DNA of 64,000 nucleotides. It comes from a virus. The stretch covers positions 32,001 through 96,000 of IMG/VR virus record IMGVR_UViG_3300037310_000404; one strand, written 5' to 3'. Both the position numbers and the translations under genes were made by a program. The notes beneath the pieces were generated by a model. That model was not told where the DNA came from and did not search any database. It saw only the letters and a program-made list of their open reading frames with translations. Below are positions 16,145 to 62,534 of this stretch, piece by piece. Position 1 is the first letter of the stretch, and the number at the start of each line of letters is the position of its first letter.

Positions 16145-18597
16145 ATTTCCTTAAGACATTTTTCGGACAGATATTAAGAAAGTCTGACGTTGATTTTCAG
16201 AATCAGGGGGCCAGAAAAGCCGCCGTCCAGACTCATATCGACTATACAAGAAATGTTGGCGGTGTAGTATCGGGATTGGATGTCTATAGATCAGTTGATG
16301 GTCTGTCGCTTCTGATTACTCCTGGAGTTTTCTATAGCAAGGGAAGCTTCATCGACTCAAATTCTCAAGGTGGCGGCGAAAGGTGTCAGATTTACGCTAC
16401 GCAGACAATTACAGGATTTCCATCCACACCACCGCTTAATGGACAACCAACATATCTGGCTATCTATGCGAAACCAATAAGCCAAAACAATAATCCTGAT
16501 CCTGGACAATCTCAAACTGTAGTAACTTCAAAAAATATTCAAACTGGAGAAAATATTCCAGTTAGACAATACACTGCTGGCATTATTTCTTACACCAACC
16601 CAATATTGGCATCCGAAGTCGTAAATGTAAGAGGAACCGTTTTGGCCCTGGTCCAAGTTGATTATAACGGGGTCACGAAAACATCTTCAAGTTTATCGGT
16701 TCAGGCTATCAACACTTCTGTTAAAGAAGATTACTTGATTGCCGGATTGATCGACGTACCAAAACAGAGGCTTGCTCAATTAGCCATCGAAGATAATTTC
16801 ATTCAGGCCAGAATGATAGATGATGGACAAATTATTTCCAGACATTTGGCTGATGGTCTTATCACATCTCAAAAGCTTGCGGTATGGGACGGCGTGTCGA
16901 CTGGAACCTCTTCTGGATCTGGCGTTGCTACTGGGCATATTAAAGATGGAGCCGTAACGTCTGCCCAGCTTAATCCTACTGGCTCGTTAGATAGATTCTC
17001 TCCATCCAACTATATCTTTAACGGATCATTTGATATTGTTCCAAATACGGCTGCAGAACCAGATCTTGTTGGCTGGACTATATATAATCAAATAACTGGC
17101 AATATCGCCTATTCCGGAAACGCGGCTGGGGTATTCAAAACTTCTACCGAATCTGTGTTTGGCGGAAATTCTGCTGTTATCGTAGGAGCCGATCCTACCA
17201 AGGTTCCTGGTGGACTAGTTCAGGGAATAGCCTTATATCAAGATGTCAATTTTACCGACCAGAGATTAAATAATAAAGATATCATGGCTTCATTTTATAT
17301 GAAGACTGATAACTCTGTTCCCATAGCTATACCTGGTATTACCGGAATAACGGCTACTGTTCAATTTCTATCCAGTAATACCCCGATCGGCACGGCCAGC
17401 GTTATCGTTAATTATACTGGCGCAGCTATAGATTGGACCAGATTTAACACAATAACGCCAATCAGATTTACCGATACCAGCACTACGGCCGACGGAATCA
17501 GATTCATGATTTCTGGAAACACAACAAATGCTGTTAATGTATACATAGATAATGTGTTTATCGGCGTAACAAACTTGTTGCCAGCGTGGACGCCATCAAG
17601 AGCAGATCTTGAATATTCAGATACGCTTAATAAAGCTAATGTAAACGCAGTTAATATTAATGCCACCAATATTATTACAAATAACATAACAGCTACAGCC
17701 TATAACTCTGTGGCTTCTGGAGTTTCTACCGTTGGAGCTATAAGCAATCCGTTCCAATCAATCAATGCCGATAACATCTATACAGGTGGCGAGCACTTAT
17801 ATTTGCAGACTGATAAGTTTGTATGTTTTACTGGAGTTGGAACATTCAATTGGGTTGTTCCACAAACTACTACTTATATTTCAATAGAGGCCGTTGGCGC
17901 GGGCGGCGGTGGAAGCGCTGGATCTGATGACTCTTCAATTTATGCCATTACGGCAAGCGAATGCGGTATTGGCGGTGGCGGAGGTGGTGCTGGGCAATAT
18001 GTAAAACAAACTATCGCCGTAGTTCCTGGAGAGGTTCTGCAAATAGCAGTCGGCGATGGTGGCAATGGTGGATTTGCTGGTGCCTTCACTGATAATATTA
18101 CTTTATATAATGGACAAAGCGGAACCAGTACTATAATAACTAGGCTCTCAAACAACAGCGTCTTGCTTCAGGCCTCGGCGGGTGCTGGTGGCGGATTGGC
18201 GTCGGGAGCAAACCTCATACGAAACGGCGGTTCTGGTGGTGGGGCATCTTATTTTTCCGTGAATACTATCAGTGTCAAGGGGCAGAATGGAGAAGCTGGG
18301 AATAACTATGGGCCAAGCCCGTTCCAGATTGGGCTTGTAGATAACTGCGGTGGCACTGGTGGCAGCGTAAAGGTTGGATCTTTTTCTTCTTCTGGCGGAT
18401 CTAGGGGCCTGGGATATACAGCTGGCGGATCGCATCCAGCCAATGTTTTACAAAATGGCGGGGGTGGTGCAGGTCCTGGCACCGGCGGTGGCGGGGGTGG
18501 TGGCAGCCGTTCTGGAGTCGCTAGTTCAGATCCTCTTGGAAGTCGTGGCGGCTATGGGGGAAAGGGAGCGCCTGGTGCTGCTATAATAAAATACTAA
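16141..18597 (+). CDS. Tail fibre/spike paralog 1 (CBM-like domain, glycine-rich C-terminus)
   Basis: NYIFNGSF carbohydrate-binding-like motif, GAGGGG glycine-rich tail, N-terminus nearly identical to 18600..21164. Confidence 0.7.
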   Translation: MNFLKTFFGQILRKSDVDFQNQGARKAAVQTHIDYTRNVGGVVSGLDVYRSVDGLSLLITPGVFYSKGSFIDSNSQGGGERCQIYATQTITGFPSTPPLNGQPTYLAIYAKPISQNNNPDPGQSQTVVTSKNIQTGENIPVRQYTAGIISYTNPILASEVVNVRGTVLALVQVDYNGVTKTSSSLSVQAINTSVKEDYLIAGLIDVPKQRLAQLAIEDNFIQARMIDDGQIISRHLADGLITSQKLAVWDGVSTGTSSGSGVATGHIKDGAVTSAQLNPTGSLDRFSPSNYIFNGSFDIVPNTAAEPDLVGWTIYNQITGNIAYSGNAAGVFKTSTESVFGGNSAVIVGADPTKVPGGLVQGIALYQDVNFTDQRLNNKDIMASFYMKTDNSVPIAIPGITGITATVQFLSSNTPIGTASVIVNYTGAAIDWTRFNTITPIRFTDTSTTADGIRFMISGNTTNAVNVYIDNVFIGVTNLLPAWTPSRADLEYSDTLNKANVNAVNINATNIITNNITATAYNSVASGVSTVGAISNPFQSINADNIYTGGEHLYLQTDKFVCFTGVGTFNWVVPQTTTYISIEAVGAGGGGSAGSDDSSIYAITASECGIGGGGGGAGQYVKQTIAVVPGEVLQIAVGDGGNGGFAGAFTDNITLYNGQSGTSTIITRLSNNSVLLQASAGAGGGLASGANLIRNGGSGGGASYFSVNTISVKGQNGEAGNNYGPSPFQIGLVDNCGGTGGSVKVGSFSSSGGSRGLGYTAGGSHPANVLQNGGGGAGPGTGGGGGGGSRSGVASSDPLGSRGGYGGKGAPGAAIIKY

Positions 18598-57785: not shown

Positions 57786-58110
57786 GGGGGCGACAGGTTT
57801 CGACGGGAGAAGTGAACGATAGGACGCATGCCGGGGGATGCTCAAGATACCTCGTTAAAAATTTCTAGGGCACAGAGAACTGCTGAAGACGCAGAACTCC
57901 TAGCAGCTTAATTGCTGCACTCAACATGGGGACTCCTCTAACTATGTATGAGCCGCAGAGGATAGGATCAGAACAAAGCTTATTTCGCCAATCAGCTTAC
58001 TTGTCTGATCTGAAATAAAGAGCGAAAGTGGCAAAAAGTGTTGCCGGACCTGAAAACCGGATAAGCATGTAGTTGGTCTACCAGGATCATCTTTCGGACG
58101 TGGGTTCGAT

Positions 58111-58708
58111 TAAGGAGCCGATAAGCTATGAAGATTGAATATCTAGCTGGCATAATAGATGTGGAAGGCACCATGTCTATATTTATGGATGGCGGTAAAA
58201 TGGTTCCATCCATAACGGTTGCCAATACCAACAAAAAACTGCTAGATGAAATCTTCAAATTCCTTAAAGCGAACGGAGTAAAATCCGAAATATGTATGCA
58301 TAAAGCAAGATCGGCGAGGCATAAAGACTCATACAGCCTGAGAGTCAGATGGAATGCCGCGATAAGACTTGCCAGCATGCTAGACGGATTTCTGATAATC
58401 AAAACAGAACAATGCAAATTGCTTGTTAATGATTTTCGGAAAAGGACTCCGAGAAATGGCAAATATTCGCAAGGAATGCTGGCTAGCAAAAATAAGTTGA
58501 TAGCCAGGTTTAGAAAGCTCAACAGTCGCGGTGTATAGTAATATACACATGAAAAATTCTCTCTGATTGACTTGGAAGCCCTGAAGAGGGTGACAAGGCG
58601 GAAGGCCTAAAGCCACCGTGAACGACTAAGCGAGAGAACATCCTATAACAAGGATGATGCGATAGTCTAAGCTGCATGTATAACAAAATAAGATGCAGGA
58701 AAGTGCTG
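58111..58708 (+). mobile_element. Group I intron in the tmRNA T-loop
   Basis: The 5' exon ends in U and the intron ends in G. P2 58531-48 (GTAA loop); P3 TTCTCTC 58557-63/GAGAGAA 58632-38; P4 CTTG/CAAG; P5 GCCCT/AGGGT; P6 GCGG/CCGT; P7 GACTA 58624-28/TAGTC 58663-67; P8 CATCCT/AGGATG; P9 TGCAT/ATGCA. Confidence 0.92.
58128..58538 (+). CDS. Single-motif LAGLIDADG homing endonuclease (intron-encoded)
   Basis: YLAGIIDVEGTMSI, ANT...L, LIIKTEQC. AAGGAG RBS at 58112-17. Confidence 0.9.
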   Translation: MKIEYLAGIIDVEGTMSIFMDGGKMVPSITVANTNKKLLDEIFKFLKANGVKSEICMHKARSARHKDSYSLRVRWNAAIRLASMLDGFLIIKTEQCKLLVNDFRKRTPRNGKYSQGMLASKNKLIARFRKLNSRGV

Positions 58709-58741
58709 TCCCACCGCCTCCACCAATTTTAAAGCAGGGCT

Positions 58742-61403: not shown

Positions 61404-61728
61404 CCAGCTGCCGGACGTAGATAAAAAAGCGTTCATCATAGATAGTAGCAAAGATGAGACAGATAGATTACTTGATCTATTTAGATTAGCTGGCAAAAAT
61501 GTAGAAAATATAGGCAGCATATTTGTCATGCTAGTCGAAAACGCTCCCGTGCCGGACAGCCTAGAGATAGACTCAACGGTTGGGGGCGATTTTGTTTATG
61601 TGTATACCGATGATGATTCTAGGCTGTTGTTGAATCAGCTTGATACATGCGTTTATGACCCGGTATACAAAAGAGTTATAGGTAGCATTGTAAAGACAGA
61701 GCTCCTATTAGGGAAAAAAGCATTATGA
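61381..61728 (+). CDS. Hypothetical protein
   Basis: Coupled ORF. Confidence 0.45.
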   Translation: MPKKLPSNQLPDVDKKAFIIDSSKDETDRLLDLFRLAGKNVENIGSIFVMLVENAPVPDSLEIDSTVGGDFVYVYTDDDSRLLLNQLDTCVYDPVYKRVIGSIVKTELLLGKKAL

Positions 61729-62534
61729 GCACAAAGCCTCAATCAATATCTATATCCGAAAGAATGAAGACATACTACGAGCACCGCACAAGGGCGTATT
61801 TGCCCCGCAGGTCTTATTCCATATTGAGACTAGACGGGCGCTCATTTCATAACTTTACAAAAACCATCGGAGCTGTAAAGCCATACGACCGAGACCTTAT
61901 GAGCCGCATGGACCTTACGGCCAAATATCTTTGCGCCAACATACAGGGCGCTAAATTAGCATATGTCCAATCCGATGAGATTTCGATTCTTATGACCGAT
62001 TTTGATGCTATACAAACGCAGGCATGGTTTGATGGCAATATCCAGAAGATCGTGTCCGTTTCCGCTTCGATGGCCGCAGGATTCTTTAATTCCATTAGCA
62101 AGGGAACATTCGGATCCAATCCATACGACAATGTTGAAAAGTATCAGGGAATGGATGTGAATGATTGGATCGTGGTAGCTGATAAAGAGCTAGCCGCTTT
62201 TGATGCTAGAGTGTTCACGATTCCAGACAAAGTAGAGGTTTATAATTATTTTGTCTGGCGTATACAAGATTGGGAATCAAATAGCTTACAGATGCTTGCC
62301 AGAAGCTATTACAACCAAAGCGATCTTCACGGCAAAAGCTGGGACGAGTTACAGTCTATGATCGTTGCTTCTGGCGGAGATTGGCACAAGCTCGATCCGG
62401 AACTTAAATACGGCAGAATCTGCAGCACTCGTCTGGGCGGCATGTGGGGAACCTATGCTGCTCCAGATCTTCATGATCCAAAACAAAAAGAAGAATTTAA
62501 AAAACTGATTCCGGAGCACGGCTATGAGCTCTAA
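61725..62534 (+). CDS. tRNA(His) guanylyltransferase Thg1/TLP family
   Basis: RLDGRSFH, YVQSDEISIL, FDGNIQKIVSVSAS, FDARVF and YFVWR.QD. Confidence 0.92.
   Translation: MSTKPQSISISERMKTYYEHRTRAYLPRRSYSILRLDGRSFHNFTKTIGAVKPYDRDLMSRMDLTAKYLCANIQGAKLAYVQSDEISILMTDFDAIQTQAWFDGNIQKIVSVSASMAAGFFNSISKGTFGSNPYDNVEKYQGMDVNDWIVVADKELAAFDARVFTIPDKVEVYNYFVWRIQDWESNSLQMLARSYYNQSDLHGKSWDELQSMIVASGGDWHKLDPELKYGRICSTRLGGMWGTYAAPDLHDPKQKEEFKKLIPEHGYEL

Follow-up and report, generated by a model that had tools for sequence, protein, structure and literature searches.

A phage tmRNA gene divided in its T-loop by a probable self-splicing group I intron with a LAGLIDADG endonuclease gene in L1

A stretch of 64,000 nucleotides from a large freshwater phage, comprising bases 32001-96000 of the 126,997-bp IMG/VR record IMGVR_UViG_3300037310_000404 (~66% complete), was analyzed with regard to a transfer-messenger RNA (tmRNA) gene at positions 57786-58725. 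This whole stretch is referred to as the window, and positions are counted from its first base unless another record or locus is named; all features of the gene lie on the plus strand. The gene is divided in the loop of its T-arm by an insert of 598 nt (58111-58708), which displays the anatomy of a group I intron and encloses in its L1 a gene for a LAGLIDADG homing endonuclease. That these parts belong together, as a phage tmRNA with a self-splicing T-loop intron and an L1 homing endonuclease, is in our estimation very probable as a whole explanation.

Exons, intron core and boundaries

Exon 1 (57786-58110), recognized by the Rfam tmRNA model RF00023, by ARAGORN on the spliced sequence and by reading of the sequence, comprises the 5' acceptor strand GGGGGCG (57786-57792), the mRNA-like and pseudoknot body, the 5' strand of the T-stem, GTGGG (58100-58104), and T-loop nucleotides 1-6, TTCGAT (58105-58110), and terminates in GGACGTGGGTTCGAT at 58110. 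Exon 2 (58709-58725; TCCCACCGCCTCCACCA), identified by sequence reading and by ARAGORN on the spliced sequence, contributes T-loop nucleotide 7 (T), the 3' strand of the T-stem (CCCAC), the 3' acceptor strand (CGCCTCC), the discriminator A and CCA. The insert between them begins with TAAGGAG and finishes with GTGCTG. When the exons are joined, a T-stem GTGGG/CCCAC, a T-loop of seven nucleotides (TTCGATT) and an acceptor stem GGGGGCG/CGCCTCC with G3:U70 emerge, followed by the discriminator A and an encoded CCA. A previous sequence-only reading of the window, which had proposed that removal of 58111-58708 restores T-arm, acceptor stem and CCA, was correct to the base in this respect. The uninterrupted T-arm reads GGACGTGGGTTCGATTCCCACCGCC as DNA, and the junction of the ligated exons is predicted to read GGGTTCGAT^TCCCACC.

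ARAGORN detected neither a tmRNA nor a tRNA in the intact 64-kb window, and after exact deletion of 58111-58708 it reported a complete tmRNA of 342 nt with 5' and 3' tRNA domains, ending in CCA. The tag reading frame (57882-57911, positions 97-126 of the tmRNA) extends from the resume codon GCT, GCU in the RNA, at 57882 through TAA and specifies AEDAELLAA* with a protease-recognition-type tail. RF00023, which had been suggested as a check, matched 57793-58112 of the interrupted gene with 78.9 bits against a gathering threshold of 47, the match lacking the 3' T-stem and acceptor strand. Exon 1 had no match in the phages collection, and the pattern of the tag frame was sought in IMG/VR without a hit. 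The sequence of the uninterrupted 3' end occurs in 73 IMG/VR contigs, none of which resembles the remaining tmRNA or has the same neighbours, so that no intron-less allele of the phage was found among them.

The insertion point lies between T-loop nucleotides 6 and 7 (TTCGAT/intron/T; subsite 7), and excision restores the loop of seven nucleotides. The U before the intron and the G at its end, both named in the sequence-only reading, are present as U58110 (U-1) and G58708; U-1 pairs with G58525, and the same holds in eight other tmRNA-hosted relatives with position 7 introns. The 5' strand of P1, CGAU/U (58107-58111), with the 5' splice site after U58110, faces the internal guide sequence AGUCG (58524-58528) as its 3' strand, whose position and sequence are conserved in an alignment of relatives (loci designated L with a number): AGUCG is found in five of them and U/GGUCG in L302 and L297, and L301 has a different P1. 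P2 (58531-58548) is a perfect hairpin of 7 bp with a GNRA loop, GUGUAUA-GUAA-UAUACAC, formed without exon bases; in 10 tmRNA-hosted introns compensatory changes occurred at 6 of 6 counted pairs, and 93% of the cells were paired versus 16-63% in slid controls.

For the core a pairing scheme of P3, P4, P5, P6, P6a, P7, P8 and P9, including the P3/P7 pseudoknot, was drawn by hand for the window and tested on an alignment of 87 non-redundant family members, with partners slid by 1-3 columns as controls. Standard pairs filled 93.6% of the cells versus 39-45% in the controls, 26 of the 40 core pairs had changed on both sides (covering P3, P5, P6, P8, P9 and one pair of P7), and in 500 shuffles not one of the five measures was attained. 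A covariance model named R1, built from 83 members with the window sequence excluded, found 58557-58707 end to end with 125.6 bits (E = 4.5e-26) and without a non-canonical pair; the other tmRNA-hosted and named-phage members scored 91-119 bits, and L303 reached 130.8 bits. Covariation and R1 locate P3 at 58557-58563 (5' strand) and 58632-58638 (3' strand), J3/4 at 58564-58570, P4 at 58571-74/58594-97, P5 at 58578-82/58587-91, P6 at 58598-601/58616-19, P6a at 58604-06/58612-14, P7 at 58624-58628 (GACUA) and 58663-58667 (UAGUC), P8 at 58639-44/58651-56, J8/7 (AUGCGA) at 58657-58662 and P9 at 58672-77/58693-98, from which a tail of 10 nt leads to the terminal G (P9 and tail together 58672-58708). 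Such a short 3' tail is common to the tmRNA-hosted relatives and was seen in L262, L303, L306 and L307. The compact group I core that had been proposed from the letters, with GACTA/TAGTC as P7, is borne out by these results: both strands occupy their sites, and the P3/P7 pseudoknot, at which a covariance model might have failed, is supported by covariation as well as by R1. The sequence evidence supports the assignment of the insert to the group I introns.

The family extends into phage protein genes. The 3' third of the insert is 80% identical (megablast) to a gap of 217 nt in MW202674.1, by which a P22-like coat gene is divided, weaker matches were obtained in Roseobacter phage CRP-118, between the halves of its ribonucleotide reductase gene, and in Desulfovibrio phage 7757, whose genome carries no annotation, and two short core motifs recovered more than 180 IMG/VR loci. 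Introns in tmRNA and in protein genes share a homologous P3-P9 core, ~80% identical, with the same P7, the same J8/7 and an invariant J3/4-P4 sequence, UCUCUGAUUGACUUG, and one model covers them all. In the protein-gene members, however, P1 is a hairpin with a terminal U-G pair, an A-rich linker leads from it directly to P3 without a P2, and the P9.x tail is usually longer, whereas the tmRNA-hosted subgroup is distinguished by the added P2 hairpin and the short tail. In public records these introns are reflected in the annotation of their hosts: the coat gene of MW202674.1 (gap at 16872-17088, L003:2496-2712) is given as two coding sequences, both called P22-like coat protein, the ribonucleotide reductase of CRP-118 (L005:1473-1872) as separate gp44 and gp45, and in one record of this type a spurious 'hypothetical protein' is annotated inside the intron. 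Tandem introns in a single gene region, seen as two core copies on one strand, were noticed in the IMG/VR contigs L010 (567-1008, within ~300 nt) and L141 (6111-6982, within ~720 nt).

The endonuclease gene and tmRNA-hosted relatives

The open reading frame (ORF) at 58128-58538 encodes 136 amino acids and was assigned to the LAGLIDADG endonucleases by Pfam, PHROG, AlphaFold2 and Foldseek. Its Shine-Dalgarno sequence, AGGAG (58114-58118), starts 4 nt into the intron, in L1, and stands 9 nt before the ATG; L303 and L310 show AAGGAGG / AAGGAG at the same place. The last codons overlap the 3' strand of P1 and P2, and the stop codon TAG (58536-58538) lies within P2. The product reached 25.1 bits with Pfam LAGLIDADG_3 (cutoff 22.5) and matched PHROG 5046 at 3.8e-16, a family whose label 'HNH endonuclease' does not fit the fold of the protein. 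It contains a single motif, YLAGIIDVEG, of which D11 is invariant and position 13 stays acidic (E or D) across 20 homologues, and a second conserved block, TPRNGKY, near the C-terminus. The AlphaFold2 model of the monomer (predicted local distance difference test, pLDDT, 93.6) displays the order alpha-beta-beta-alpha-beta-beta-alpha, and the best Foldseek matches in the PDB were the homodimeric single-motif enzymes I-CvuI, I-MsoI and I-CreI (template modelling score, TM, 0.70-0.79; probability 1.00), so the LAGLIDADG identity claimed for the ORF stands by Pfam and by fold. A search of the sequence against solved structures matched no chain, a word-indexed protein search returned the query itself only, and the initial search of IMG/VR for loci related to the endonuclease confirmed none.

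Modelled in two copies, the protein received a homodimer score of 0.57 versus 0.00 for the best control, with an interface of residues 2-13, contact agreement between runs of at least 87% and a partner pLDDT of at least 82. Among proteins of solved structure, 20 of 30 that form pairs of one chain came up to the mark of 0.57, as did 1 of 23 that are single chains; since dimers of the I-CreI type are already solved, this pass denotes likeness rather than proof, and on the models the protein most likely acts as a homodimer. The T-arm DNA provides inverted arms of 5 bp, GTGGG and CCCAC, on both sides of the insertion point, which would suit a homodimeric enzyme.

An exhaustive HMMER search with the ORF product yielded 523 homologues and, together with targeted pattern scans with the core, led to the relatives described here. 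The DNA around six of the seven closest homologues was examined, and all six lie in or beside tmRNA genes. In L303 the homologue is 57% identical and the arrangement is that of the window, with an intron of 593 nt; L310 (604-nt intron, with tRNA-Trp and tRNA-Asp just downstream) and L307 (648-nt intron, with bacterial chromosomal neighbours) likewise hold the endonuclease gene in L1. Past the exon 2-like 3' end of L312, UCUCGCCGGAUCCACCA, follows a tRNA-Pro; its 5' T-loop was not found, and Rfam calls no tmRNA there. Two homologues are free-standing immediately 3' of a tmRNA gene, one (40% identical) in L306 (984-1959), where the tmRNA has an ORF-less intron of 193 nt, and one (48% identical) in L304 (957-1812), where the tmRNA is intron-less. 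ORF-less T-loop introns were also detected in the tmRNA of an Elusimicrobia metagenome-assembled genome (L262, 193 nt), of L297 (186 nt) and of L302 (195 nt), the last represented by four identical contigs, including an IMG/VR phage contig, and flanked by RNA ligase and other PHROG families. Judged by the arrangement of the genes, the free-standing and the L1-inserted forms resemble steps by which a free-standing nuclease became intron-borne. The combination of phage tmRNA, intron and LAGLIDADG gene in L1, on which the sequence-only reading had laid stress, is therefore present but not unique, as it recurs in at least one other IMG/VR phage contig and in several phage-like contigs.

Nine other tmRNA-hosted family members were compared with the window, eight of them at T-loop subsite 7. 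In the subsite-7 members the strand (A/U/G)GUCG stands 0-2 nt ahead of a hairpin of 7-8 bp with a loop of four, followed by an A-rich joiner and P3, and pairs with CGAU of the exon together with the base that opens the intron, U-1 being opposite G. This GUCG-hairpin block is situated 7-10 nt past the splice site in the ORF-less L262, L302, L297 and L306, and splice site and block are separated by the insertion of a homologous endonuclease gene in the window and in L303, L307 and L310. The placement of the ORF in L1, as had been proposed, is thus supported by comparison with the relatives, because the AGUCG-P2-P3 block that lies near the splice site in the ORF-less introns stands after the ORF here. 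If P1 were instead the local pairing of 7 bp between 58105-58111 and 58133-58139 (UUCGAUU/GAUUGAA), the ORF would come to lie between P1 and P2. This pairing is longer than the long-range P1, and a similar AUUGAA is found near the start codon of L310; it would, however, put U-1 opposite A with a G-U wobble one base into the intron, it is incompatible with the terminal G58708 and with a T-loop of seven nucleotides, and it is absent in L303 and L307, whereas the AGUCG-P2 block is conserved in every relative. We consider it highly improbable and rejected it; at most it may form as a transient alternative pairing.

Removal of the introns in silico from L307, L310, L306, L262 and L302 gave a tmRNA call by ARAGORN in each case. 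Across the relatives compared, exon identity amounted to 74-78% in partial alignments and identity of the intron RNA to 81-88%, a comparison too crude to prove mobility. The 38 pattern matches in metagenomes were mostly chance occurrences in coding DNA, the real ones being L268, L277, L293, L297, L272 and L301, and R1, run on a sample of 151 genomes of the phylum to which the genome of L262 belongs, matched the latter only.

Some relatives show peculiarities of their own. After the acceptor strand L303 (797-815) and L307 (2104-2120) have ACAA or ACUG, not ACCA, so CCA is not encoded. In L301 (497-720, minus strand) and L272 an intron of the same family with P1 GCGGGU/GCCCGC resides in tmRNA; its 5' splice site would fall after the T-stem and one U, its 3' end reads ...AUAACG/UCCCGCC, and the joined exons would leave a T-loop of 2 nt, which may correspond to a minor subsite of PMC11915505 or to something else. 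For the phage-like contig L310 (224-642), spliced in silico, ARAGORN gave an unusually long tag of 26 amino acids ending in YLAK, and the sequence scored below the threshold of the Rfam tmRNA model; the tag may have been called wrongly, or this tmRNA departs from the usual type.

The LAGLIDADG protein might serve mainly as a maturase that aids the long-range P1 and the folding of the core, with little or no activity as a DNA endonuclease. Maturases of this class are well known, one being the Thermotoga 23S intron protein as cited in PMC3984707, the bI3 maturase was among the Foldseek matches, and an L1 of 410 nt may need help in closing. Yet the acidic residue of the motif is kept throughout the family, the closest folds are those of active homodimeric endonucleases, and in L304 a homologue stands beside an intron-less tmRNA, where a maturase would be without substrate. 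A predominantly maturase function thus appears rather unlikely, although the two roles are not exclusive, and an endonuclease with the T-arm as its target remains the favoured assignment.

Phage setting and proposed mechanism

The tmRNA begins one base after the stop codon of a dUTPase gene (gap 0 nt) and ends 16 nt before a gene for an FkbM-type methyltransferase on the same strand. Upstream lie genes for thymidylate synthase, a sigma factor and the dUTPase, downstream those for the methyltransferase and a Thg1-like tRNA-His guanylyltransferase (61725-62534), and the last 31 kb of the record contain PhoH, nicotinamide phosphoribosyltransferase (NAMPT) and an NMNAT/Nudix gene, an RF-1-domain protein, a tRNA-Ser and an HNH endonuclease. 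Searches for consensus promoters and terminators gave chance levels at most, and none delimits a separate transcription unit for the tmRNA. Contigs from a second freshwater study are identical to pieces of the locus, including 58393-58692 and flanking genes; they bridge neither splice junction, and no intron-less joint was seen in them. A chimeric assembly is argued against, because unrelated assemblies show the same architecture. The RF-1 (peptide chain release factor) domain protein (358 aa; PHROG 19918, 20323) occupies 110875-111948 of the record (L315:14875-15948) on the minus strand and a tRNA-Ser(GGA) 112281-112370; with the Thg1-like gene and the tmRNA they constitute a cluster of translation-related functions.

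The use of ssrA as an integration site by many prophages, together with the occurrence of the uninterrupted 3' end on 73 IMG/VR contigs, could suggest that the tmRNA gene is bacterial and came into the viral contig with flanking host DNA or as what is left of an att site at the edge of a prophage. Against such an origin, the gene lies at ~90 kb of the 127-kb record, is complete and not a 3' fragment, is separated from its neighbours on the same strand by gaps of 0 and 16 nt, has no integrase beside it, and is followed by phage-type genes for 37 kb further on. We regard a host flank as very unlikely, since the tmRNA is tightly packed among phage-type genes on both sides, apparently within a phage operon.

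As a mechanism for the phage tmRNA with its T-loop intron we propose transcription together with the dUTPase gene or directly behind it into a precursor of 940 nt, in which the ribozyme would fold with the long-range P1 (CGAU/U with AGUCG, U58110-G58525), P2 with its GNRA loop and the compact P3-P9 core. Self-splicing initiated by guanosine would join the exons. Until then the tmRNA would be inactive: the phage tmRNA probably depends on splicing, because the T-arm and acceptor stem, which alanylation, SmpB binding and trans-translation require, are rebuilt by splicing alone. The 136-aa protein, presumably made from its own ribosome-binding site in L1 and most likely homodimeric, would have the intron-less T-arm DNA with its inverted arms GTGGG and CCCAC as probable target, which we infer because the homologues of the endonuclease are linked to tmRNA genes in their location. 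A cut in the T-arm would bring about homing, in which tmRNA genes without the intron receive a copy of it, and the insertion of the intron would disrupt the target site and protect the phage's own copy.

Several points weigh against this explanation. P1 comprises only 5 bp, has to close across ~410 nt, and is unable to show covariation because the exon sequence of the T-loop is invariant. The pseudoknot region (PK1-PK4) downstream of the tag frame was aligned by Rfam with low posterior probability. No SmpB gene was found in the 127-kb record, ~66% of the genome, and the phage is assumed to rely on the SmpB of its host. No RNA sequencing run containing the stretch, and hence no read across the junction 58110^58709, was found. 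The Rfam group I model Intron_gpI (RF00028), proposed as a check in the sequence-only reading, failed on the window with 11.6 bits against a threshold of 50 (E = 5.6); this failure is uninformative and no evidence against a group I intron, because the model reaches its threshold in none of 16 family loci scanned and was seeded without bacterial sequences (bioRxiv 10.1101/2020.01.27.920355).

The short long-range P1 and the missing RNA runs would also fit a decaying relic, in which the ribozyme splices poorly or not at all and the phage tmRNA is a pseudogene, as would the tail of only 10 nt past P9, where most protein-gene members have a longer P9.x domain. However, all core helices are intact and, with the exception of L303, no other scored member surpasses the window under R1; the short tail is common to all tmRNA-hosted relatives, including the bacterial chromosomal L262 and L307; and the ORF is intact with its catalytic residues kept, the exons rebuilding a flawless tRNA-like domain. 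Decay therefore seems improbable to us in comparison with a functional, splicing tmRNA gene.

On a wider scale, phages may be the carriers by which tmRNA introns are spread among bacterial phyla, the endonuclease cutting the intron-less ssrA of the host at the near-universal T-arm, an idea we put forward as speculative and somewhat doubtful. If it were true, the intron, perhaps along with exon sequence of the phage tmRNA, would enter bacterial chromosomes when the break is repaired on the phage template; a cut during lytic growth could also remove the tmRNA gene of the host and leave the phage-encoded tag system in charge; and the three arrangements of the endonuclease gene, free-standing 3' of either an intron-less or an intron-form tmRNA, or enclosed in L1, would represent successive stages of invasion.

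The locus is of interest for annotation as well, as ARAGORN finds nothing, Rfam a truncated tmRNA, and gene callers only a small ORF (PHROGs 'HNH endonuclease'); phage tmRNAs of the intron form are therefore under-counted. It links three subjects that are commonly handled apart, namely the bacterial intron-form tmRNAs, the small group I family common in phage genes for capsid and nucleotide metabolism, and a LAGLIDADG lineage confined almost entirely to tmRNA genes and their immediate vicinity, and hence gives a testable route by which tmRNA introns could have reached 21 bacterial phyla, phage-borne homing at an almost invariant target. For experiments it supplies a compact ribozyme (~190 nt) and a cognate 136-aa endonuclease with a predictable target.

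Comparison with known systems

Intron-form tmRNA was first described for Clostridium, according to a title cited in PMC11915505. That T-loop introns of tmRNA are known, as stated in the sequence-only reading, is in line with the literature, and their rarity is to be qualified: they account for 1,703 of 421,434 tmRNA genes (~0.4%), and the 883 unique sequences, all in the T-loop and mostly at subsite 7, are spread over 21 phyla (PMC11915505). LAGLIDADG genes occur in 36 of these 883, and the first 23 sited lie after P9 (4) or in the P7.1 region (19). RefSeq viruses were included in that search; the text mentions no phage intron form, and its phylum table lists bacteria and archaea only (PMC11915505). 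No published report of an endonuclease-carrying intron-form tmRNA in a phage was found.

With the bacterial intron-form tmRNAs the window shares the host gene, the position between loop nucleotides 6 and 7, U-1, the terminal G and the reconstitution of the T-loop; a minority of them likewise carries LAGLIDADG genes, and direct relatives exist in L262 and in L307, the latter with its endonuclease in L1 in a bacterial chromosomal context. The replicon is different, as it is a phage here, and so is the site of the endonuclease gene, which is L1 instead of after P9 or the P7.1 region; in the core of the window just 3 nt separate P7 from P3', at the place that a P7.1 would take. When 185,579 species genomes (one each) were scanned for the family 15-mer of J3/4-P4 within 18-48 nt of a T-loop, one bacterial case was obtained, and from this we infer that the abundant tmRNA introns of Bacillota probably belong to a different lineage.

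I-CreI, I-MsoI and I-CvuI resemble the endonuclease in their fold, in one LAGLIDADG helix at the dimer interface (modelled for the window protein), in an acidic residue at the metal position and in being intron-encoded. They differ with 13-19% identity and in targeting rDNA, where T-arm DNA of tmRNA is the presumed target of the window protein, which is shorter and carries the C-terminal TPRNGKY. Other phages possess an ssrA-like gene of their own, for example Phage__Mycobacterium.9 of DS6A (PMC11915505), but the published phage examples found are uninterrupted or minimal and not intron forms. Novelty is limited by the fact that intron-form tmRNA at the same T-loop subsite is already catalogued in 21 bacterial phyla; what appears to be new is that the replicon is a phage, that the endonuclease gene sits in L1, and that the intron is related to a small family often met in the protein genes of phages.

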